Below, piece by piece: positions 1 through 9,998 of a stretch of 10,004 nt of DNA. The DNA is from a virus. The stretch's first letter is position 1. Every line of letters begins with the position of its first letter. The notes below the pieces were generated by a model. That model was not told the DNA's origin. It made no database searches and was given only the letters and a program-made list of their open reading frames with translations. Location: UHGV virus genome UHGV-0113281, one strand, 5' to 3'. The position numbers and the translations under genes were made by a program.

Positions 1-145
1 GATGACGCCTGTACGCATTTGGTGATCCGGTTCTGCTTCCGGCATTCGCTTAATTCAGCACAACGGAAAGAGCACTTATGGCTCGCATCGCGGGAAAAAG
101 CCCACGGTAGAGAGTCGAACTCTACAAATGCACTTACCTGTTGTG

Positions 146-179
146 CAAACAAAAAAGCCCCGACGTTTATGCCGAGGCT
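146..179 (-). terminator. Rho-independent terminator, about 160-190 nt downstream of the Q-like gene (tR'-like)
   Basis: Seen in sequence: on the minus-strand RNA, 5'-AGCCUCGGC-AUAAAC-GUCGGGGCU-3' forms a 9-bp stem (two G-U pairs) with a 6-nt loop (plus 156-179), followed by UUUUUUGUUUG (plus 155-146). On the plus strand the same region has mismatches and no downstream T-run. Confidence 0.5.
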
Positions 180-336
180 CTTACCTAATCTAGCCAGTAT
201 GTCGACCCTAAATATTATCGGCAACCGGGGAAATCAGGATTTCAATTTCGCTGCTCAGTTCGCTTTTGCTCCGAGCATATACGAAAAATACCACTTTCAT
301 TTCTCGGAAGCAACGCATTTACAAAATTATTTCAGT

Positions 337-951
337 TCAGGCCGCTATCAATGGAAATTCTTTCTCCAATTCTCGTTTCATTGCATAAAACATTTCTGAC
401 TCCAGCACTTTCTCACACCACACCACTCGCTTACGACAATATTGAATATCAGCACCTGTTATATAAGAAATCATCCTGGCTATATCTTGCGTGCAATTGC
501 GATTGCAATATCGCTTAATAGCTACATCGCGGACGGGGCTTTCACGGTGAAAAGTCTTGACCATCACACGTTCAACGAAAGCCGCATCATCTGATTCTTT
601 GGCGAGAGTGATGATGTGGCTAAACGATGATTGAGGAATGACCAGTTCGCGAGCTTTCTTGTATAGCACATCTCCGCGCAGCCCATCTTCTTCGTACAGG
701 CGCATGACGACAGACTCTATCTGCTTAGCCTTGTCATCGCTCCACTGACTGCGAATCATCAGACGACCGATAACGTTAATTGCACCACCTGGAGAGCAAT
801 CTCCGGCATTAACCTTGCCCCATACCTGTAACATGTAATGAACCCATGCTTTCTGGCTAGAGTTGATGGTTTTCTTCGGGTGTCTCCATACGCGGCGAAA
901 GTGCGCGTCATTAATGAAGTTAACCATGCTGAATACTGGAGTTAGCCGCAT
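337..951 (-). CDS. Putative late-gene antiterminator Q-like protein (204 aa from the ATG at 951; the ORF track extends to a TTG at 981)
   Basis: Synteny: it follows ybcO-like, rusA and a small ORF, as Q does in lambdoid nin regions. The protein has a Cys cluster (YCNRNC...YCRKRVVWC) that could bind zinc. I prefer the ATG at 951 because GGAGG lies 4 nt upstream and it overlaps the TGA of the upstream small ORF (TGATG). Family assignment is from context, not from recognised sequence identity. Confidence 0.45.
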   Translation of the reverse strand: MRLTPVFSMVNFINDAHFRRVWRHPKKTINSSQKAWVHYMLQVWGKVNAGDCSPGGAINVIGRLMIRSQWSDDKAKQIESVVMRLYEEDGLRGDVLYKKARELVIPQSSFSHIITLAKESDDAAFVERVMVKTFHRESPVRDVAIKRYCNRNCTQDIARMISYITGADIQYCRKRVVWCEKVLESEMFYAMKRELEKEFPLIAA

Positions 952-1094
952 CAGACCTCCCATCCTTTGCAATGACACCAAACTTCAAACATTCGTTTCA
1001 CAATTTCACTACAGTAGAAACCTTCAACATCTCGCGTCAGGTCATAGCGATTGCCATAACGCTGGCGCATATATCGTTCGAATGCTTTGTTCAT
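951..1094 (-). CDS. Small 47-aa protein between rusA and Q (MNKAFERYMRQRYGNRYDLTRDVEGFYCSEIVKRMFEVWCHCKGWEV), absent from the ORF track
   Basis: Seen in sequence: its ATG overlaps the rusA stop (ATGA) and its TGA overlaps the Q-like start (TGATG), so it is translationally coupled on both sides. Lambdoid prophages commonly carry a tiny ORF at this position. Confidence 0.5.
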   Translation of the reverse strand: MNKAFERYMRQRYGNRYDLTRDVEGFYCSEIVKRMFEVWCHCKGWEV

Positions 1095-1453
1095 ACGTTC
1101 TCCAGTTCGGTGATTTTTATTCCAAGCCGTCCGCCTGGTACTTTCACACCACGAATTACGCGAATGTCATCGAATTGCTCGTCGTCTTCCGCAAATCCGG
1201 CGTGGATAAGGGAGTCGAGTAAACCTTTCAGGATGTTGTCGAGGTCGCGGCGGCGGGAGTCTGGAACGTCTGCGATGACTTTGATGCGGAGTCGTGATTT
1301 GGTGAAAATGTCTAACTTAAGTTGGCGGATGATTTGCTGAACGTCTTTTCGGTATTTCTGGCCTTTATCGCTGATGTAGTATTGGCTTCCCCGTCTTCGC
1401 CAGTAGGTGTTCAGCGACGGTGGGTATGGAAGCACAAACTGGTATTCGTTCAT
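1091..1453 (-). CDS. rusA: Holliday junction resolvase RusA (crossover junction endodeoxyribonuclease)
   Basis: The 120-aa translation has the RusA hallmarks: N-terminal PYPPSLNTYWRR, the catalytic acidic motif DSRRRDLDN, and C-terminal GGRLGIKITE. Length and position in the nin region match. Start overlaps the upstream stop (ATGA). Confidence 0.9.
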   Translation of the reverse strand: MNEYQFVLPYPPSLNTYWRRRGSQYYISDKGQKYRKDVQQIIRQLKLDIFTKSRLRIKVIADVPDSRRRDLDNILKGLLDSLIHAGFAEDDEQFDDIRVIRGVKVPGGRLGIKITELENV

Positions 1454-1740
1454 GACTTAATCTTCCCCTCCTTCAGCAGTATCGCCTGCGTCCTGATCAC
1501 ACCTTCGAGGTGGTAAAGTCTGGCGTCTTTGTTGTCGAGAATCCTTGTGCGTCGGTCGATCTCCGCGTGGCAGTCACTACAAGCCCATGCACCGATCAGG
1601 TCGTCAGGCTTCATTCCAGTTCCGCAAATTCCAGCCATCCGGTAATGTGCCAGAACTGTAGTTTCAGGATTTCCATTGCATACACCGTAAATACGTACCT
1701 GGCATTCTCTGCCGCGAGCTTCTTTGCGTAGGTTAGCCAT
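1450..1740 (-). CDS. ybcO: YbcO-like DUF1364-family putative nuclease (nin region)
   Basis: The 96-aa translation (MANLRKEARGRECQVRIYGVCNGNPETTVLAHYRMAGICGTG...CSDCHAEIDRRT...TQAILLKEGKIKS) closely resembles E. coli DLP12 YbcO as I recall it, with conserved Cys/His residues. It sits directly upstream of rusA as in DLP12. Start overlaps the upstream stop (TAATG). Confidence 0.85.
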   Translation of the reverse strand: MANLRKEARGRECQVRIYGVCNGNPETTVLAHYRMAGICGTGMKPDDLIGAWACSDCHAEIDRRTRILDNKDARLYHLEGVIRTQAILLKEGKIKS

Positions 1741-2468
1741 TAAGCAGCCTCCCCTGTTACTTTCAGCATTCCGTTATCGAGCAGCTTTCTGGTCAGCCAC
1801 TGTTGACCACGCCCGGTGATTTTTGTGGTGAACGATATCTGTATTCCGTGATTTGTGTTGACCGCTGTTTCTTTCACTGTGAAATAGCCGCGATCCATAT
1901 ATTCCTGCATTGGCACATTGCGCCGGGAACCTGAAGCAATAAGGATTTTGTGATCGCGCATCCACGCAAACAGTTTGTTTGGACCAATTCCAACAACCTT
2001 TGCAAAGTTTCCAATCAAAATTCCGCTGGCCTCGCCAACGCGATCGGCAAACTCAACTTTAGGTGCGGCAATTGCGAGCTGGTTTTCCAGTTGCATTTTC
2101 TGCTCAGCAAGATCAGCAGCAAGGCGCAACGCTTCTGGTAGCGTTTTGGGGATATTAACCGCAGCGTCTTCAAGCTCTCGCCAACGGTCAACAAGACGAG
2201 CGGTGAATTCCGGCGACAACTGAGCGACGACAATAATGCTGTCGCGCTTACCTTGTTCGCCTTCGAAGACGTAATGCTCGTACTGAACATTGAACCCTAA
2301 GTTATTGATTCTTTCGGAAACCTCAATTTGAGGAAGCCGGATAACACCATTTTTAGCCAGCGTTTCGATGGTACGTTTCACATTGTCATGACGCTTACCT
2401 GTAAGCTCAGCGATTTCAATGCTAGTCATTTTGATGACGTTGCTATTTATCAGCTCGTTCATTGTCAT
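1740..2468 (-). CDS. Phage antirepressor / regulatory protein with Rha-type N-terminal domain and KilA-C (ANT) C-terminal domain
   Basis: The N-terminus (MTSIEIAELTGKRHDNVKRTIETL) is typical of the phage Rha family; the C-terminal half (GILIGNFAKVVGIGPNKLFAWMRDHKILI...GYFTVKETAV) is typical of KilA-C/ANT domains. An alternative ATG at 2462 has better spacing to the GAGAGG Shine-Dalgarno. Confidence 0.8.
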   Translation of the reverse strand: MTMNELINSNVIKMTSIEIAELTGKRHDNVKRTIETLAKNGVIRLPQIEVSERINNLGFNVQYEHYVFEGEQGKRDSIIVVAQLSPEFTARLVDRWRELEDAAVNIPKTLPEALRLAADLAEQKMQLENQLAIAAPKVEFADRVGEASGILIGNFAKVVGIGPNKLFAWMRDHKILIASGSRRNVPMQEYMDRGYFTVKETAVNTNHGIQISFTTKITGRGQQWLTRKLLDNGMLKVTGEAA

Positions 2469-2492
2469 GTCCTCTCATATTGAAAATTCACC

Positions 2493-2520
2493 AATAAAAA
2501 ACCCAGCCGAAGCTGGGTTT
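2493..2520 (-). terminator. Rho-independent terminator between ant and the Rha/KilAC gene
   Basis: Seen in sequence: minus-strand RNA AACCCAGC-UUCG-GCUGGGUU (8-bp stem, UUCG tetraloop) followed by UUUUUUAUU. It is partly symmetric, so it may act in both directions. Confidence 0.6.
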
Positions 2521-2536
2521 GTTAAGTTGTCAATTG

Positions 2537-3472
2537 TCAGTAGCGATGCAGTGAAGGCGGCAACTCTTTGTTCTTAAGCCTTTCCCATGCCAGAAGGTTC
2601 GTCGGCCCGTCAGGCTCATAAATATCTATATCCCGCGTGTGATTAATTAAAACGCCCCTCGCCCTCCCGATGATATACGAGAACTCATAGCCGTAGTCGT
2701 GGCATATGCCGGAATAGTTCGATTGAATTTGTTTTAGCGCCGGATACAGTTCGCGGAATAATGCCTGTGAGCGGTTGGCATAATCCCATAACCATACAAG
2801 GCTGTTTGCTTCTTTTGCAGAAAGCTCGTTGGTTTTCTTCTCTTGTTTGCCAATGAACTCACCTTCAAGTGGAACTCGAGCTGCAAGTGACAGTGCTTCT
2901 GTAAACTGCTCCTCACTGATTTCTTTGTACGAACATCCAAAATGGGATTTCAGTGACGACCACATGGTAATCATTGCCTTCGCCTGTTTTTCTTTTGGCA
3001 GAGACTGACCGCGACTCATGACGAGTTGTTTAATGGCTTCCTGCTGTTCAGTGGTGATTTTACCCGGCAACGCCTTTTTAGCTTTGCGTGGGTTAACTAC
3101 ATGGCCTTTAGTCCAGTAGTCATGCAGCACGCTAAAGCATTCCTCCTGGTACTGAATCAGTTTATCACGGATGTCAGCACGAACTTTCTCAGGGTTGATG
3201 CTGAACAGCCATCCATTGAGTTTCTTCAGCGGTATGCATAAAAGCTTACGTAACTTGCCATCAGCGGCAACCATAGAGATATCTCTACAGTTGAATTTGT
3301 CCTTCATTTTACGCAACTTAACAGATTGACCAGTCCAGTCTATACCAATGTTTTCCACAATTTGACGCATCGCTACATAAGTCACTCCGGCAGCCACAGC
3401 GGTTAAAATCTGCTGACCATTGAAAGGCACGTAAGAGGTGTTCACTGCTTCTAAAATTGCTATACTATTCAT
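2537..3472 (-). CDS. ant: P22-type antirepressor Ant (P22_AR N- and C-terminal domains), 311 aa from the ATG at 3472; the ORF track extends to a TTG at 3502
   Basis: The N-terminus [46 protein letters not shown] is the characteristic Ant N-domain. It sits downstream of arc-like and opposite mnt-like, as in the P22 immI region. The ATG at 3472 has a GGAG about 10 nt upstream. Confidence 0.8.
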
Positions 3473-3545
3473 GTTGGTTTTTCTCCAAGGATTTACCGAC
3501 AACCGAAGCCCTGACTGTTACAGCAGTTGGGGCTTCAACTTTTAT
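3473..3545 (+). ncRNA. Candidate sar-like antisense RNA covering the ant translation-initiation region (about 70 nt)
   Basis: Seen in sequence: plus-strand extended -10 TGcTATACT (3458-3466), giving a start near 3473; plus-strand hairpin GAAGCCC...GGGCTTC (3505-3536) followed by AACTTTTAT (3537-3545). Established knowledge: P22 ant is controlled by the roughly 69-nt antisense sar RNA, which is transcribed opposite to ant and pairs with its ribosome-binding site. The call is inference from architecture only. Confidence 0.3.
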
Positions 3546-3726
3546 CAGCGCCTTCAACTGGAATACTCTCTAGCTTTTCATCTAACCCCTTCTCGCCATG
3601 CATGAAAATAACAATATCTGTAACGCATGAGTCACAAATTGCTTCTTCGGTATTTTTTGACACAACAAAGCCCCTTCCAGTCGTTTCTTTACTACACCCA
3701 CAAAAACAACATCTGCGGTTTTTCAT
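3535..3726 (-). CDS. Small (63 aa) ClpX-type C4 zinc-finger protein, inserted between arc-like and ant
   Basis: The translation MKNRRCCFCGCSKETTGRGFVVSKNTEEAICDSCVTDIV matches the ClpX N-terminal zinc-binding domain pattern (CxFCG ... ICDxCV). A strong Shine-Dalgarno (GAGGGGG) lies 7 nt upstream and the ATG overlaps the arc-like stop (ATGA). Confidence 0.6.
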   Translation of the reverse strand: MKNRRCCFCGCSKETTGRGFVVSKNTEEAICDSCVTDIVIFMHGEKGLDEKLESIPVEGADKS

Positions 3727-3875
3727 ACCACTACCCCCTCTCTCTTCAGGCTGTCCAGCAATCGCTTAATCACTTCCGAGTTAAACGACCGGCATTCTTC
3801 TTTGGCCTTTCCTGTAATCGCATCTTTTAGCGACTGAGGCATTCTCACCAAAATTCTGCTAACTTCTTTTTCCAT
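3723..3875 (-). CDS. arc: Arc-like ribbon-helix-helix repressor (50 aa from the ATG at 3875; the ORF track extends to 3911)
   Basis: MEKEVSRILVRMPQSLKDAITGKAKEECRSFNSEVIKRLLDSLKREGVVV aligns with P22 Arc (the xRMPxxL beta-strand followed by the NGRSxNSE helix motif). The ATG at 3875 has GGTGG 4 nt upstream; the upstream ATG at 3911 lies inside the predicted promoter -10 and has no Shine-Dalgarno. Confidence 0.7.
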   Translation of the reverse strand: MEKEVSRILVRMPQSLKDAITGKAKEECRSFNSEVIKRLLDSLKREGVVV

Positions 3876-3984
3876 ACCGCCACCATGTGAGTTATTGTGA
3901 ATCACAAACATATCACTGTGACTATATCAAGTCAAAATTTTTTTGAATACACTGTGATATCAATGTGATTATCACGGTGTAAGT
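3876..3984. promoter_or_regulatory. Divergent arc / mnt control region with clustered palindromic operators
   Basis: Seen in sequence: a 109-bp intergenic region with eight TGTGA / TCAC half-sites, including the palindromes TTGTGAaTCACAA (3895-3907), TCACtGTGA (3913-3921) and GTGATtATCAC (3965-3975), plus direct repeats of TGTGAT (3954, 3964). The Pmnt promoter could not be placed confidently. Confidence 0.5.
3907..3935 (-). promoter_or_regulatory. Candidate Pant-like sigma70 promoter for the arc-ZnF-ant operon
   Basis: Seen in sequence: on the minus strand, -35 TTGACT (plus 3935-3930), a 17-nt spacer, and -10 TATGTT (plus 3912-3907). The spacer contains the palindrome TCACtGTGA, matching the known placement of the Arc operator inside Pant in P22. 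Confidence 0.45.
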
Positions 3985-4239
3985 ATGACGAAGGTTAGAG
4001 ACATAGCCCCATATAGCGTAAGAATGCCAGATAGCCTCAAGCGCGACCTGACCATAAGAGCATCGAAAAACGGACGCTCATTAAATTCAGAAATAGTTAT
4101 GATCTTGCAAGCTGCTATTGATGAAGAAAAATCACCAAGATCAATAGAAGGTTTTGCTCAACAAGAATCTGAAAAATTTAGGGAGGCTCTTCTTAAGACT
4201 CTCAGTAGCATGTACGGAGAAGATAAAAAACCCACCTGA
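3985..4239 (+). CDS. mnt: Mnt-like ribbon-helix-helix repressor
   Basis: The 84-aa translation (..YSVRMPDSLKRDLTIRASKNGRSLNSEIVMILQAAI...LLKTLSSMYGEDKKPT) aligns along its length with P22 Mnt (83 aa; RMP...NGRSMNSE...DLYKKTT). It is divergent from arc-like and has a GGTG Shine-Dalgarno 5 nt upstream. Confidence 0.8.
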   Translation: MTKVRDIAPYSVRMPDSLKRDLTIRASKNGRSLNSEIVMILQAAIDEEKSPRSIEGFAQQESEKFREALLKTLSSMYGEDKKPT

Positions 4240-4249
4240 CGGCGGGTTT
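4226..4249. terminator. Hairpin terminator shared by the convergent mnt-like (+) and YafO-like (-) genes
   Basis: Seen in sequence: AAACCCACC-TGAC-GGCGGGTTT; on the minus strand the stem has one G-U pair and is followed by UUUUUUAUCUU. It overlaps both stop codons and is the stronger terminator in the minus direction. Confidence 0.5.
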
Positions 4250-4697
4250 AGTCAAACATAGTGTTTCTAAAGTCTCTCGCATACCCTGCTAACACTCTCA
4301 TTCTATTATGATTGTTAGCAGACATGTGAGCTACAGGGTGAAAAAGAGCAATCAATGAATACCTGTTCTCATCAAAAAGATTTTGTGCATAAACGAGAGC
4401 GGTATTGGATGTTTTATGCCACTGCAACTTTTGCGGTGTGCTGATATCTGTGCCATTTTTTATTGGCTCAAATTTATTTTCACCAATTGCTAAATGAAGG
4501 TGCATAAGACCTGCATCTTCAATATCAGGAGGCCGATGATAAGAGGTGTCTCTGCCAAAATAGCTGGGCAACGTTCCCGTAGACTTGTAGATGATAAAAT
4601 CATCTACAAGTGTTTGTTTTAAATCAGGAAACTCAACAAAAACCGGGGAGAAAAAATAGTCAAAACTATCCTGATTATATTCCACGGTTACTTGCAT
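4248..4697 (-). CDS. YafO-family toxin homolog (type II toxin-antitoxin toxin; ribosome-dependent mRNA interferase family)
   Basis: The 149-aa translation shares conserved blocks with E. coli YafO as I recall it: DFIIYKSTGTLPSYFGRD, MHLHLAIGEN, QKLQWHKTSNTALVYAQNLFDENRYSLIALFHP, NNHNRMRVLAGYARDFR. It starts 8 nt after the stop of the upstream gene. Confidence 0.7.
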   Translation of the reverse strand: MQVTVEYNQDSFDYFFSPVFVEFPDLKQTLVDDFIIYKSTGTLPSYFGRDTSYHRPPDIEDAGLMHLHLAIGENKFEPIKNGTDISTPQKLQWHKTSNTALVYAQNLFDENRYSLIALFHPVAHMSANNHNRMRVLAGYARDFRNTMFD

Positions 4698-4705
4698 GTT
4701 TTACC

Positions 4706-5272
4706 TCAGTGGAAGTTACCAGAGTGAAACACACGAGTCCCGTGCTCAGCAAGCGCACGCAAACCAGCCATATCTACGGAACTATCAAAAACAACCGGAA
4801 CACATGAGCGTTGTTTAATAAGACTATTCAGGTTAGTTACGGCAGATCTAGCATCAGCAACAACGATATAGATATCTCTTGCGATCTCTTTAAAATCAGC
4901 AGAAGCTTCTTTGAATACCGATTTCATTGCCCCTTCAAGTCCTCTCAATTGATGCTCTATCAATCGAGACTTTTCTGGTTCAATGATAGACAACACATTG
5001 TCTACATTCTCATCGGTAGCGTTTGCAAGAACACGATAAGCGTATTTCAGCATTCGAGACAATTCTTTAATCGAAGACACCGCCTCATGAAGCTCATCAT
5101 TAGCCCGTTCACTGCTGAATGAGGATTGATGGTAAGCGTGCTGAACGTTATCAGTAACAACCACCTCACAACTGAACGCAGAAGCTTGCTGTAATAGCAA
5201 ACCTATTGCGACTCCAGCTTTGGCAGCGTTCAAGCTAAACATTTCATCAATCCCATTAGTCTCATTGCTCAT
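4706..5272 (-). CDS. Unrecognised 188-aa protein, upstream partner of the YafO-like toxin (putative antitoxin or immunity component)
   Basis: Seen in sequence: a consensus Shine-Dalgarno AAGGAGG lies 5 nt upstream of the ATG at 5272 (the ORF track's 5302 start is an upstream extension). It appears mostly helical, with no ribbon-helix-helix, helix-turn-helix or Phd/YefM-like motif I can recognise. It is much larger than the canonical YafN antitoxin (about 97 aa). Confidence 0.65.
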   Translation of the reverse strand: MSNETNGIDEMFSLNAAKAGVAIGLLLQQASAFSCEVVVTDNVQHAYHQSSFSSERANDELHEAVSSIKELSRMLKYAYRVLANATDENVDNVLSIIEPEKSRLIEHQLRGLEGAMKSVFKEASADFKEIARDIYIVVADARSAVTNLNSLIKQRSCVPVVFDSSVDMAGLRALAEHGTRVFHSGNFH

Positions 5273-5447
5273 ACAAACCTCCTTCTTATCGGAGATTATC
5301 AATAGCTATGTATCCATTGAATACACGCTATGCGCAGTAATTCTACGTCACGTGATATCATTATGCAACCACCGTTCTATCACCGACTAACTTTACTCCC
5401 ACTCCTATACATCATCTGGTATCCTGCTCAAAACTAAGGAGGTTGGT
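5273..5447. promoter_or_regulatory. Divergent intergenic control region between the TA-like cassette (-) and the 109-aa gene (+)
   Basis: Seen in sequence: minus-strand -10 GATAAT (plus 5300-5295) with a weak -35 TTCAAT (15-nt spacer), about 20 nt upstream of the Shine-Dalgarno; the perfect palindrome TCACGTGA at 5348-5355; and a strong plus-strand Shine-Dalgarno TAAGGAGG (5435-5442) for the 109-aa gene. Confidence 0.3.
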
Positions 5448-5777
5448 GTGCTTGAATGGTTTCTGTTGGCTGCATTAGTCGTTTCTGGTTTGGTGTATGA
5501 GTATCGAATGCACTCTCTAACAAAAAAAATAGGAATTCTAGAAAACGAATATTGTGCTCTCAAATCCTCACTGGAACGTGAGCAAGGGGACTTAAAAATC
5601 TCTCTGTCTAGCATTGAGCGTTCTATAGAGAGCTTAGAGGATAAGGTTGATCGTATAAAGAATGAGGATATTCATGATATTAAGGACGACATATCCTTCT
5701 TAAAATCTTGGTTGAAAAATGTTGGGAAAATTGCCACATCAACACGAGATAAGCTCAATCCATCCATGGATGACTAA
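5448..5777 (+). CDS. Small bitopic membrane protein with a coiled-coil region (109 aa); candidate superinfection-exclusion or accessory protein
   Basis: GTG start with TAAGGAGG 5 nt upstream. N-terminal hydrophobic helix (LEWFLLAALVVSGLVY) followed by a heptad-like charged segment (LENEYCALKSSLEREQGDLKISLSSIERSIESLEDKVDRIKNE). It occupies the slot after the gp16-like gene where P22 carries sieA. Confidence 0.6.
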   Translation: MLEWFLLAALVVSGLVYEYRMHSLTKKIGILENEYCALKSSLEREQGDLKISLSSIERSIESLEDKVDRIKNEDIHDIKDDISFLKSWLKNVGKIATSTRDKLNPSMDD

Positions 5778-7946
5778 TTACTCCTGTGCCATTCCGCTTA
5801 GCGATGCCACAATTCCAGCTCTTGCTAAACGCTGGAACTCTTCGTTTCCTAGTGCCTCGCGTATTGCTTTTACGGCGGCCTTATTTGCCATAAATCTGCG
5901 TTCCGCCGCCGCTAATGCACCATCACTTGCCCCAACCTTAACTGCCTTTGTTGCCTCTTGAACAGCCTTTTCAATAGCGTAACGACCGCTTCTAGTTGCG
6001 GATAATTTCGCTATCGCTCCTTTTGCCATTGCATCAATTGCCCCACCTGCAGCGCCACCCGCTATTGCTCCAATGACGCCTCCTCCAGAGAACCCTGCGA
6101 TAGTGCCAATAGTTCTAAAAGCGCCAGACAATGCGCTCTCTAAAACTGGATGAAGGCCATTCTCAAGAGTGCTAATGGCTGGCATAGATCGCCCTGTCTG
6201 TTCAACATATCGAAGTGGCTTTGTTGCTGCTCGTGCAAGTTCTCCGTATGAACTTGTAATCCTGCCAAGATCTGGAGAATATCGACTAATTGCCTTCACG
6301 TTTTGTGGGGTAAGAATAGTCGCGATATGCTTAATTCCAGCCTCTTCAGACTTACCTCCGCGTACCCCTTGCGACATTGCATCTTGTAATATTGATGCAA
6401 TTGCTGGCGCGCGTTCCGACTCAGGTAGGGCGCTTATTATTTTATGGAACTGACCTGTTCCACTTTTTGCTGAACCCTGTAACGCCTTAGATCCATTAGT
6501 TACCAACTGATCAGTTGCAAGGTCTCTACCAAACGCTGCTTCAGCCTGTTCTTGTGCTGTAAATCTTGCCTTTGACAGATCATTAGCTTTTTGCCAGTCA
6601 TCAAGAAAACCGCCATTTTGAGCCATTATGCGCATATCTTCCGTTGCTGCATCACGAAGCTCAGCCATGCGCCTTGCCGTATTTGCCTCACCAGACCTTA
6701 TATACTTCTGCTCTGCGTCAGCAAGTTTACTTCGCCATGCCTTCATGGCATCAAACGTGATTCCTTTTTTACCAGTTTTAGCATAAGCAGATGCGAATTG
6801 TTTCATCTCAGGAGTTAGCGGCATGCCAGCCAAAATATCACCCTGAATTGTAGCGTTCAGGTTTGACATTCTGGCCTTTGCGTCAGGCATCGTGGAGCGG
6901 ACGCTATCCCATGCAGCCTTTTCTGAATTTTTCATTTTATCAATACTTGCCAAAACCCTTTGTTTTATGGCTGCACTTTTTTCTGATGCAGTTCCTGCTT
7001 CAGCCCCAAACTCATCCAATGCTGAGTTAAATTTCGACTCTATTTCACTGAATGCTTTGGTGTGTGCATCCTGTGTAATTCCGGGCTTTGACGCCAGAAT
7101 CCCCTCCGCCTGAGCAAGACCACGACTACCTGATCTCATGCCAGGAGTTAATGCGTTGATATCTATTCCAGCAGTATCTGCTGCTTTTGCTATTTCGTCT
7201 GACACATTAGCTGACTGTCTGGCAATAATCTCTCTTCCTGTACCAGACTTTGCCATTTTCGAAACATCAGCAGCGGAATTTATTGCCCCGCCACCAAGAA
7301 CTTGAGGTGATTTAGAGGTTAAGATCCTTCCAGCCCCAGAAAGTATCCCCTGAGCACCAATATTGATACCACCGTTAATGGCAGCATTTTGTGCAAAATC
7401 ACCCTCCTGATTTGCAGCATCAGCAAGAGAACCGGCAATCATGTTACCTGCGGAACCGATGTCTCCTGAGAGCTTTGCTGGCGCTCCAGCAGCTTTTGCT
7501 GCTGTGCCAATTGGCAGGAGGTACCCACCAATTGTTTCACCGGCTTGCGCGTAAGGGTCTGTCGGTCGATCGACTGGACGATAGACATCATCCAATACTT
7601 TTGGCCCACCAAGCCCCTGACTGATTGCATTAATCAGACTTGCGCCACCCTGCAATACGTCAAATGGTATGTTTACCAGACCACGACCAGCCTGTTCTGC
7701 AATTTGCCCTGCACTTTGACCACCAGTGAGCCAATCGCCAGCTTGTTGCATCAATGATGGTTCTTCTTTCTGCTGCTGAGGCGGAGGGTATGCTGCATAA
7801 AACTGATCTCTTGCTTCAGCCCATTTGTCACCAGCCTTAGGGGCAACAACCTCATCAAAATATTGCGCTTGAGCCTGTGCTTTCTGTTCTTCAGTTAACG
7901 CCTGATACTGTGGAGAAGCGATAACATCTTTCCATGCTTTAGCCAT
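5778..7946 (-). CDS. Putative ejection / internal virion protein, P22 gp16-like (722 aa)
   Basis: Last and largest of three consecutive Ala/Gly/Gln-rich low-complexity proteins, located immediately before the immI-like module, matching the P22 7-20-16 order. Start overlaps the upstream stop (TAATG). The call rests on synteny and composition. Confidence 0.5.
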
Positions 7947-9295
7947 TAATCACCCCATAAAGACGAGAAACCGGACTTATTGCTGTCGCTTCCTGATTTT
8001 CGCTCACTAACATATGTGTCATAACCTGATGAACTGTATCCCATTGATTCAGCCTCCCTTGCTGCAACCTTTTGAAATACAGAATATTGAGATCGTATTT
8101 CAGATAACTGTTTTCTGACGACCTCTTCAGGCTGTGTTATATCGAGTTTCGCGATCAGGTTTTCCAGTTTTTGGCCTTCAGCATTGGAGAGGCTACCCAT
8201 ACCTCGCATAGTCTGCACGTTCTGGACAAACGCACCCGACTTTAATTCTTCTATCGCATTACGGTTTGCAAGCCCTTCAGCACTTGTGAAGCCATCTATA
8301 TTTCTTCCTTCGAAGCGACCGATACCTTCAAGCTCCTTCTTACCAAGCAAAGAATCTATTTTCTCTATCCCTCGCTCACCAGTAATCAACGCATTGTTGT
8401 AATTATTGTTGCCATCAAGCCATCTCTTAGCCTGAGACATTCTGGCTGACGTTGCAGCTTTACCGGTTAGAGGATCAATTCCCGTCGCTGCTATCTGTGA
8501 GTTAAGAGACAAAACATCCATATCCTGAAGTTGTCCTGCTCTTTCAAGGGCCGCCTGTGACTGCTTAAACACATACTTGTCGTGATTCAGTCTTGCCATT
8601 TGAGCCTTATAGGAAAGATCCTGCCCCCTAATAGCCCTCGCATTCGTCATGTCATTATTGCGAATGGTTTCGTTAATTCTTTGCTGCTCCTGCTGGCGAC
8701 CAACCATCTTGTCCTGAACAGCAAACGCCTTTTCTGGCCCAAGCGCACCGAGAGACATAGTAGTCAGCATGTGTGATAGCTGCTCTGGATTCTGGATACC
8801 TGTCTGAATCATCCAGTCAGCATTCGCACCCACGCGATTTAACCTGTCCTTGTTGTCAGTAATGAATTTACTGTAGGCTTCCGGTCCCTGAGAAAGAGCG
8901 ACGTTAGCCCTCATGGCTAAATCGCCCATATCGTTGCGTTGCTGATCATTAAGACCGGAAAACGCCTGTTGTGCCTGTGCAACAAACGCTGGATTTTCCT
9001 GGGCAAACTTAAATAGTCCCGATGGATCACCAGAAGCCCATGCATCAGCGTGAACCTTATTGAACGCACTAATAGCTTTCTGTTGCTGTTCCTGATTGTA
9101 AATATCAGCAACTCCAGCCAGACCACGTAACGCGGTCAGGCCAACGTTATTTGCACCTGAGCGAGCCAGTTCATTGTTTTCGCGGATCAGACCAAGCGTT
9201 GCGTTAATGTCGCTTGCCTTTGGCGCATTCTCATTTTGCGTACCGATGCCAGCCAGAAAACCACCAGAATTAATACCCTGTTGCCACGTAGCCAT
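7946..9295 (-). CDS. Putative ejection / DNA-transfer protein, P22 gp20-like (449 aa)
   Basis: Middle gene of the three-gene block; its size is close to P22 gp20 (471 aa); Gln/Asn/Ala-rich. Synteny-based call. Confidence 0.5.
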
Positions 9296-9305
9296 TGATT
9301 ACCCC

Positions 9306-9998
9306 TTAAAACAACGAGCCAAGCAGACCAAGACCAGCACCGATACCAGCACCCCACGGAGTTGATAGCTCGAGAGCACTGGCTATGCCACCACCCAAAA
9401 GCGCACCGGATGCAGCACCACTAACCCCCTGCTGCAATGCTGACGGTCGGTTGGCGTTTGCCGCTGCAAGAGCCGCGCTTTGCTGTGAAATCTGACTCAT
9501 GTTGTTGGCGTATGTCTGCCCGGCGTTTGCCTGCCCCTGAAGAGCGCCAAGACCGATATTTGCCAGGTTGTTGTAATTGTTCATTTGTCCAGATAGCCAT
9601 TGCTGACCAAGCGTTGGTGCGATTGTTGCTAACTGATTACTGGTTGCTGTAGAGCCTAATCCACCCGTTGCCTCTGCTGCTGCCAGACTCTGGTAACGCG
9701 CCTGACCAGCAAGATCTTTGTACTGCTGAGAGTTGTAATACTGGTTAAGTGCCTGACCTTGCCCTTCCAGAGACGATAAGTTCTCGAGGCTGCCGACATA
9801 CTTATCAGCCAGAGGAGTAAACGGCTTCAGGTTGTTCATGATGGTGTTGAACTGCTGATTTTGCAGGTCTGCGGCATACTTCTGAGCTTCTGCTGCATAC
9901 TTTGCGCTTTTATCAGAGCTGCCACCTTTCCCACCCTTTTCAGGGCAATAAGGTTCCTCGCCGCGCAGTTTTCTGCCCAGCTTAAATGCATATAACAT
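9306..9998 (-). CDS. Putative ejection protein, P22 gp7-like (230 aa)
   Basis: Size matches P22 gp7 (229 aa). Basic N-terminal leader (MLYAFKLGRKLRGEE...), Gln/Asn/Ala/Gly-rich body and glycine-rich hydrophobic C-terminus (GAGIGAGLGLLGSLF). First gene of the 7-20-16-like block. The ATG is 6 nt from the window edge, so the upstream signals are not visible. Confidence 0.55.
   Translation of the reverse strand: MLYAFKLGRKLRGEEPYCPEKGGKGGSSDKSAKYAAEAQKYAADLQNQQFNTIMNNLKPFTPLADKYVGSLENLSSLEGQGQALNQYYNSQQYKDLAGQARYQSLAAAEATGGLGSTATSNQLATIAPTLGQQWLSGQMNNYNNLANIGLGALQGQANAGQTYANNMSQISQQSAALAAANANRPSALQQGVSGAASGALLGGGIASALELSTPWGAGIGAGLGLLGSLF

Follow-up and report, generated by a model that had tools for sequence, protein, structure and literature searches.

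In the 10,004-nucleotide (nt) stretch of the viral genome UHGV-0113281 that we analysed (hereafter the window), the open reading frame (ORF) at positions 5448-5777 of the plus strand is a genuine gene and, judged by sequence comparison, is hkcB of the coliphage HK620, which is catalogued and uncharacterised. As a moron cassette the gene is self-contained; it lies in the immI region or "ant moron", is read against the direction of the late operon and directly adjoins the 3'-end of gene 16; it occupies the slot and orientation of sieA of phage P22, and it is independent of the toxin-antitoxin (TA)-like gene pair found upstream of it in the window. Its position points to superinfection exclusion, mentioned in passing by the first-pass annotation of this DNA, as the best supported reading of its function, and we give a probability of roughly 0.45-0.55 to the proposal that HkcB acts at the inner membrane to shield the lysogen from incoming phages, analogously to SieA and without being related to it. 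The parts of the hkcB unit, with the coding sequence (CDS) and the adjoining gene, were located as follows.

5417-5450, plus strand: left linker, made of the TGGTATCCT box (5417-5425), a leader, the Shine-Dalgarno (SD) sequence AAGGAGG (5436-5442) and GTG (5448-5450)
5448-5777, plus strand: hkcB homologue, CDS of 109 amino acids (aa), GTG start, TAA stop
5451-5498, plus strand: N-terminal hydrophobic helix, a predicted membrane anchor (residues 2-17, from hydropathy)
5499-5756, plus strand: long helix with heptad-like hydrophobic spacing (residues 18-103)
5709-5726, plus strand: invariant W88-x-x-N91-V92-G93 motif, within the most conserved region (residues 66-103)
5760-5769, plus strand: right linker CCATCCATGG, inside the CDS, codons P105-S-M-D108
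5778-7946, minus strand: gene 16, ejection/DNA-transfer protein of 722 aa (phrog_770, E 9e-220)

The strong SD sequence and GTG start that had been assigned to the 109-aa ORF were confirmed (AAGGAGG at 5436-5442, a 5-nt spacer and GTG at 5448-5450), and so was its AT-richness, since the G+C fraction was 0.433 at 5581-5640 and 0.379 over the whole ORF as against 0.478 for gene 16. The length of the ORF by itself is no proof of a gene, because the window is full of spurious ORFs of 100-126 aa. Prophages of E. coli, Salmonella, Klebsiella aerogenes, Leclercia and Serratia carry homologues of 104-109 aa at this position. When the gene was compared with the homologues of other genera (Nei-Gojobori method), the ratio of non-synonymous to synonymous change (dN/dS) was 0.23-0.49 overall and 0.16-0.29 over the last 45 codons, where the synonymous sites were heavily diverged (proportion of synonymous differences, pS, 0.50-0.70), showing that the C-terminal half is conserved as protein and not just as homogenised DNA.

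The gene was 98% identical in nucleotide sequence to that of HK620 over 5417-5900, and HkcB of HK620 (NP_112088) differed at a single residue (L2F). Membership in phrog_5962, a family that carries no assigned function, was supported both by a full-length match (E 1.9e-61, with residues 2-109 aligned to profile positions 2-109 of 109) and by the abutting convergent gene 16; the profile search against Pfam found no family matched by HkcB. The records of HK620, epsilon34 (as gene 14), CUS-3 and vB_EcoP-611R6 all label the protein as "hypothetical". Those of epsilon34 and CUS-3 are approximately 50% identical to the HkcB described here and have the same length, architecture and position abutting gene 16; the HK620, epsilon34 and CUS-3 loci resemble the window in the protein, whereas the TA-like partner upstream of it in the window is a rare combination.

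The family is small, with 51 clusters at 90% identity when 5.8 billion proteins were searched and, in an exhaustive hidden Markov model search of 1.84 billion proteins, about seven true representatives at 50% identity; the latter search gave 10 proteins at E <= 0.001, three of which were coiled-coil proteins of 815-3472 aa with multi-stretch matches. All the named sources of the family were Enterobacterales, and a scan of genome contigs for related loci gave no confirmed relatives. The sole paper that mentions hkcB describes it as of unknown function and located "in a similar position" in HK620 and epsilon34, and none of the literature and database records found assigns it a function; a paper on Tai systems that names HK620 has the tail needle as its subject and was discarded as not relevant to hkcB. 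Two metagenomic sequences (P0022 and P0023) joined an unrelated N-terminus of 60 residues to the last 45 residues of HkcB, indicating that recombination has taken place inside hkcB, and truncated or frameshifted forms of the gene were also seen (P0024, P0025 and P0031).

"Ant moron" is the name that Villafane et al. (2008) gave to the variable insert between genes 16 and 9 (PMC2629481), and hkcB of the window lies inside it. In the window, hkcB converges on gene 16 and the stop codons of the two genes abut (TAATTA at 5775-5780). The intergenic distance between them was zero in 46 of 48 loci, the stops also abutted in the Leclercia and Klebsiella homologues and were separated by a 3-nt gap in Serratia, and this linkage to gene 16 was constant across genera at 35-50% identity. 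The sieA gene of P22 likewise has genes 16 and 9 on either side; it is on the strand opposite to gene 16, 22 nt from the stop of that gene, and begins at the same GTG and the same GGTATCCTGCnCAAAACTAAGGAGGTTGGTGTG element. Over the 33-nt stretch up to and including the start codon, sieA and hkcB were identical except for one variable base. The two genes share the slot, the strand, the left linker, a related right linker and a product that is a small membrane protein. As a member of the SieA family (types A-C) HkcB was nevertheless rejected, because sequence, motif and number of transmembrane (TM) segments fail and only position and expression signals match.

The homology of the window to HK620 and 611R6 starts at 5411/5417, that is, at the left linker. 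This element is shared well beyond the hkcB loci. IMG/VR was scanned for its 22-nt core CAAAACTAAGGAGGTTGGTGTG, which was found at a minimum of 120 loci, 118 of them with a complete ORF starting at that GTG. Among the matches listed, to which all counts of cassettes and linkers given here refer, these 118 ORFs belonged to 13 unrelated types, and the same left element stood before P22 sieA and at least 12 other cassettes. The types were the following.

129-aa signal-peptide protein: at least 24 loci, phrog_2651, frequent
HkcB-1: at least 17 loci
62-aa two-TM protein: at least 12 loci, phrog_21338
HkcB-2: at least 10 loci
75-aa two-TM protein: at least 9 loci, phrog_7294
164-aa SieA: at least 9 loci, with the FGRYPGEANGFNK motif, phrog_7745 "SieA-like", E 9e-109
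MLEI 109-aa TM-plus-coiled-coil protein: at least 8 loci
116-aa multi-TM protein: at least 6 loci
106-aa single-TM protein: at least 6 loci
149-aa single-TM protein: at least 5 loci
99-aa signal-peptide protein: at least 5 loci
140-aa soluble-looking protein: at least 5 loci, no membrane segment
68-aa signal-peptide protein: at least 2 loci

Of the 13 types, 12 had TM segments, a signal peptide or an N-terminus that was hydrophobic. Only the 164-aa SieA type had a named PHROG, all the others being without assigned function. The 13 types were found in 12 upstream contexts, with which they reassort widely, and one contig (L123) carried two linker-headed cassettes 1.7 kb apart. The MLEI protein has the length of HkcB and its TM-plus-coiled-coil design; homology between the two was tried and could not be demonstrated (hhalign probability 5%).

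The sequence TGGTATCCTG was present in 109 of the 118 loci; it lies inside the 14 nt upstream of the searched pattern and hence had not been selected for by the scan. The TGgTATCCT within the left linker may correspond to an extended -10 box, in agreement with a putative PsieA promoter that has been placed within 85 bp of the sieA start (PMC10883804). With a divergent gene upstream of hkcB (the window, HK620 and epsilon34) a -10-like box was present, whereas it was absent, with the SD sequence kept, where hkcB is the last gene of an apparent operon on the mnt strand (CUS-3, Klebsiella and Serratia). This arrangement counts in favour of expression in the lysogen.

At the other end of the cassette, the motif CC[AGT]TCC[AGT]TGG occurred within -25 to +30 nt of the stop codon in 79 of 117 loci and in 10 of the 13 types, compared with a background of about 0.002 per 55 nt. 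The right linker of the slot is written CCATCC[A/G]TGG, and P22 sieA has a related version. Since the Serratia homologue reads it in another frame (S-I-R-G), the right linker is a DNA-level element, and since it lies inside the hkcB CDS, HkcB ends in five or six residues that are its translation. It was conserved as DNA whether inside or outside a CDS and, together with flanking G/C, formed a near-palindrome (GCCATCCATGGC). Its possible roles are those of a recombination target, a protein site or an RNA element.

The two linkers bound a slot in which at least 13 unrelated cassettes, mostly encoding small envelope proteins, are exchanged by recombination. This arrangement resembles the moron and linker concept of lambdoid phages, which likewise involves a variable and independently transcribed insert in the late operon, with short conserved junctions and reassorting flanks and contents, and the "boundary sequence" features annotated in CUS-3 are comparable module-junction sequences; unlike lambdoid boundary sequences in general, the left linker described here itself carries expression signals. 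That the region between genes 16 and 9 is diverse had already been noted in 2008 (PMC2629481), and our literature searches found no description of a slot with two linkers and at least 13 cassettes, sieA among them. The two linkers provide a simple sequence handle for harvesting further cassettes from prophages.

As the first-pass annotation had proposed, the protein has one N-terminal TM helix followed by a coiled-coil-like helix. Residues 1-17 were hydrophobic, with a Kyte-Doolittle mean of 2.16 over 15 residues, and there was no second segment, the best 15-residue value outside the anchor being 0.49. Over the following 80 residues the hydrophobic positions were 3 and 4 apart with two register breaks (24, 28, 31, 35, 38, 42, 49, 53, 56, 60, 63, 67, 70, 75, 78, 82, 85, 89, 92 and 95), and the 3.5-residue periodicity between residues 21 and 100 had a z value of 3.1, reached by 1.6% of 2000 shuffles; such breaks in the heptad register account for the weaker periodicity of distant homologues. 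AlphaFold2, run with a seven-sequence alignment, modelled residues 2-103 as one continuous helix (mean predicted local distance difference test, pLDDT, 85.8), and the helix probably self-associates as a coiled coil. A search of PDB with the family profile gave generic coiled coils only (GCN4 fusions, keratin and vimentin, best E 0.017), and Foldseek gave no match in BFVD, which is uninformative because the predicted fold is a single long helix.

Down to 26% overall identity the invariant positions of the family were L31, E34, L49, E73, D80 and W88-x-x-N91-V92-G93 (alignment A2), and on this pattern of conservation the functionally constrained part of HkcB is the region of residues 66-103. In all seven homologues compared there was no lysine or arginine before the anchor and there were two or three within the 15 residues after it, a pattern that, under the positive-inside rule, predicts an N-out/C-in orientation. 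HkcB would accordingly be an inner-membrane protein with its N-terminus outside and its helix in the cytoplasm.

We propose that in the lysogen hkcB would be transcribed from the linker promoter, as for P22 sieA, or from Pmnt where it is embedded in an operon. The protein would insert in the inner membrane by its anchor of 16-18 residues, N-terminus out, leaving in the cytoplasm a helix of about 85 residues that would self-associate and end in the constrained region of residues 66-103. From there it may interfere with DNA delivery by P22-like phages at the inner membrane, or exert some other membrane-based action against phages. The precedent is that sieA is expressed from the prophage and is sufficient for exclusion, that the mutations which escape SieA lie in the C-terminal regions of gp16 and gp20 (PMC10883804), and that SieA, an injection blocker, is the only characterised occupant of the slot (PMC10883804; Leavitt et al. 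2024). The positional and regulatory equivalence of hkcB and sieA, together with the cassette slot, turns a "hypothetical protein" into a testable exclusion or defence hypothesis.

Small inner-membrane proteins encoded by phages or prophages are known to block genome entry, as do HK97 gp15 and T4 Sp, whose functional domains are periplasmic. HkcB is like the single-pass exclusion proteins of the HK97 gp15 type in general design only, its helix being predicted to be cytoplasmic, and the PHROG, Pfam and PDB searches revealed no homology to proteins of the HK97 gp15 or T4 Sp type.

Several points weigh against an exclusion role of the SieA kind. The case for it is one of guilt by position, with no homology behind it: SieA has three or four TM helices where HkcB has one and a long helix, the PHROG scan of HkcB did not return phrog_7745, and HkcB lacks the FxRYPxEAxxFNK motif. 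As to gene 16, its linkage to hkcB may have a purely physical cause, since no DNA lies between the two genes where recombination could separate them. The orientation of HkcB is called from charge counts only, and if it is C-in, the conserved domain lies across the membrane from the periplasmic gp20 tube, so that the target would have to be the cytoplasmic face of gp16 or a host factor. A simple consensus scan of 5273-5447 found no sigma-70 promoter, and the -10 assignment is a reading made by comparison of loci. PADLOC-DB gave a sole match, to DpdH (E 0.002, 16.3 bits); it covers the TM and coiled-coil part and is likely to be compositional.

More tentatively, and with a probability clearly below even, the slot may be a dedicated exchange site whose cassettes, at least 13 of them, are alternative exclusion or defence effectors against the conduit formed by the ejection proteins, with HkcB as a new coiled-coil class unrelated to SieA that possibly acts from the cytoplasmic face of the gp16 channel. 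If unrelated folds do the same job in this way, the occupants of the slot would be a panel of natural inhibitors with which the building of the trans-envelope channel by gp7, gp20 and gp16 could be dissected. The cassettes are diverse and one of them (140 aa) is without a membrane segment, so the slot need not serve one function.

This diversity also favours the strongest of the rival explanations, possible although somewhat doubtful in our opinion, in which HkcB is a membrane-anchored moron product with another function, either an abortive infection (Abi) protein or sensor directed against unrelated phages, or a lysogenic conversion factor whose cytoplasmic coiled coil acts on the envelope or the division of the host. 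The predicted C-in topology would suit a cytoplasmic target better than a periplasmic conduit. Moreover, HkcB-1 proteins that were 98-100% identical adjoined gp16 of the HK620, CUS-3 and epsilon34 types and gp20 variants with identities of 38% to 99%, and only the extreme 3'-end of gene 16 travelled with hkcB, which means that HkcB does not co-vary with its putative targets beyond the C-terminus of gp16. Both the orientation and this lack of co-variation fit such a function equally well. What speaks against it is that no convincing match to a defence family was found, that the one characterised protein of the slot blocks injection (PMC10883804), and that the family does not extend beyond P22-like prophages of Enterobacterales, and exclusion at the inner membrane is still the explanation that we prefer.

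It is unlikely that the unit acts purely as RNA, with the linker promoter driving transcription antisense to gene 16 that dampens late-gene leakage in lysogens and with the protein being incidental. There is indeed no terminator between the convergent hkcB and gene 16, and the right linker is conserved as DNA whatever the reading frame; however, there is clear purifying selection on the amino acids with synonymous sites saturated, the W-x-x-N-V-G motif is invariant at 26% identity, and the length of the ORF has been kept across genera.

A still less probable view, and one that the data below contradict, is that of the first-pass annotation, in which hkcB could be a membrane sensor or effector forming the third component of an accessory island with the TA-like pair, co-regulated with it through a 175-bp divergent region. 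The pair and the DNA between it and hkcB were as follows.

4248-5272, minus strand: TA-like pair, made of a 188-aa gene (4706-5272) and a YafO-family toxin gene (4248-4697)
5273-5416: upstream context module (U7), which travels with the TA-like pair and is outside the hkcB unit

The product of the YafO-like gene matched PF13957 (YafO_toxin, E 3.4e-22). The 188-aa gene upstream of it matched phrog_8416, had no Pfam match and gave a marginal match to ZorA (E 0.004); 188 aa is unusually long for a putative antitoxin.

The pair lies beside hkcB, in divergent orientation, in the window and in a single contig of IMG/VR (L027), but among 5,426 complete E. coli genomes, 117 of which had hkcB DNA and 55 of which had the pair (APEC O1, S88 and ATCC 11775, for example), there was none with both adjacent. 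The first-pass annotation itself had named a lack of conserved co-occurrence as refuting its proposal, and the two occurred together at only two of 51 hkcB loci; over these 51 loci at least seven kinds of upstream neighbour were found.

P63C-domain gene: 14 of 51 loci
hkcC: 12 of 51 loci
CUS-3 0007/0008 pair, same strand: 5 of 51 loci
mnt: 2 of 51 loci
TA-like pair (the window and contig L027): 2 of 51 loci
epsilon34 gene 15: 1 of 51 loci
other, or none within 400 nt: 15 of 51 loci

The pair, which in the loci examined was always inside the ant moron of P22-like prophages, has varied partners of its own, the commonest being the 116-aa multi-TM gene, with the 62-aa and 140-aa genes also found, so that its upstream context combines with four cassettes in all (those three and HkcB-1). 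When a query spanning the junction was compared with the E. coli genomes, matches to the pair ran from 4248 to 5450 and were then followed by other genes, whereas matches to hkcB started at 5411-5417. E. coli ATCC 11775, for instance, had the pair and the whole upstream region, after which came the unrelated multi-TM gene of 116 aa and a gene 16 that differed. The divergent spacer of 175 bp is present as annotated (5273-5447, the ATG of the 188-aa gene being at 5270-5272), but what it has in common with other hkcB loci is only its last 34 nt or so, and these are the universal linker, which forms the junction of the pair and hkcB, and not a shared operator. The presence of hkcB beside the pair is a recombination accident and not a three-gene system, which corrects the logic of the annotation. 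A perfect palindrome, TCACGTGA, was seen at 5340-5365 beside a GATATC; it is a possible operator of the TA-like pair and belongs to the upstream context module and not to hkcB.

The least probable role is that of a lysis or structural protein, such as an i-spanin or an assembly factor for the ejection proteins: the TM-plus-coiled-coil architecture is i-spanin-like and the gene touches gene 16, but hkcB runs against the late operon and outside the lysis cassette, has no positive charge before its TM segment whereas i-spanins are N-in/C-out, contains or adjoins no lipobox ORF (the sole overlapping ORF, 5719-5961, starts MLGKLPHQ), and is absent from P22, Sf6 and many viable P22-like phages with other cassettes or none (PMC2629481). 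An Rz-like protein was thus rejected on strand, charge pattern and o-spanin partner alike, and identification as a known structural or lysis protein, which the first-pass annotation had named as a second finding that would go against it, was not obtained.

The order of genes 7, 20 and 16, followed by an immI-type region, identifies the window as part of a P22-like (Lederbergvirus) prophage. The remaining genes recognised in it were these.

1091-1453: RusA, nin-like region
1450-1740: YbcO (PF07102), nin-like region
1740-2468: Rha/KilAC antirepressor, nin-like region
left of about 2496: 214-aa ORF, nin-like region
2537-3502, minus strand: Ant, with P22_AR_N and P22_AR_C domains
3535-3726, minus strand: 63-aa ORF between arc and ant (phrog_7150, E 5.7e-8)
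3723-3911, minus strand: Arc, immI-type region
3985-4239, plus strand: Mnt-like ribbon-helix-helix (RHH) protein, immI-type region
7946-9295, minus strand: gene 20 (PF16928)
9306-9998, minus strand: gene 7 (PF25688, E 2.9e-132)

No tailspike gene was found downstream of ant in window positions 1-2852, and the sequence to the left of about 2496 gave matches to the nin region of lambdoid prophages. In some E. coli genomes a gene with a P22AR_C domain lies beside the same KilAC gene, with homology reaching 2852. From the look of the join, a P22-like prophage has recombined with a lambdoid one inside the 3' part of ant, unless the join is an assembly chimera.

The gp16 of the window was 95% identical to that of HK620. 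CUS-3 ECRS218_0010 and HK620 gp16 were approximately 77% identical over 726 residues by tblastn (loci L004 and L001), unlike the mere 26% identity given between gp16 of CUS-3 and that of HK620 (PMC10883804). A G+C-rich hairpin followed by a T-run was observed at 4228-4249, between the convergent mnt-like and YafO-like genes, and resembles a terminator placed at a module boundary. Finally, the 63-aa ORF at 3535-3726 of the minus strand has two cysteine pairs (CCFCGC...CDSC) and may encode a small zinc-ribbon protein.

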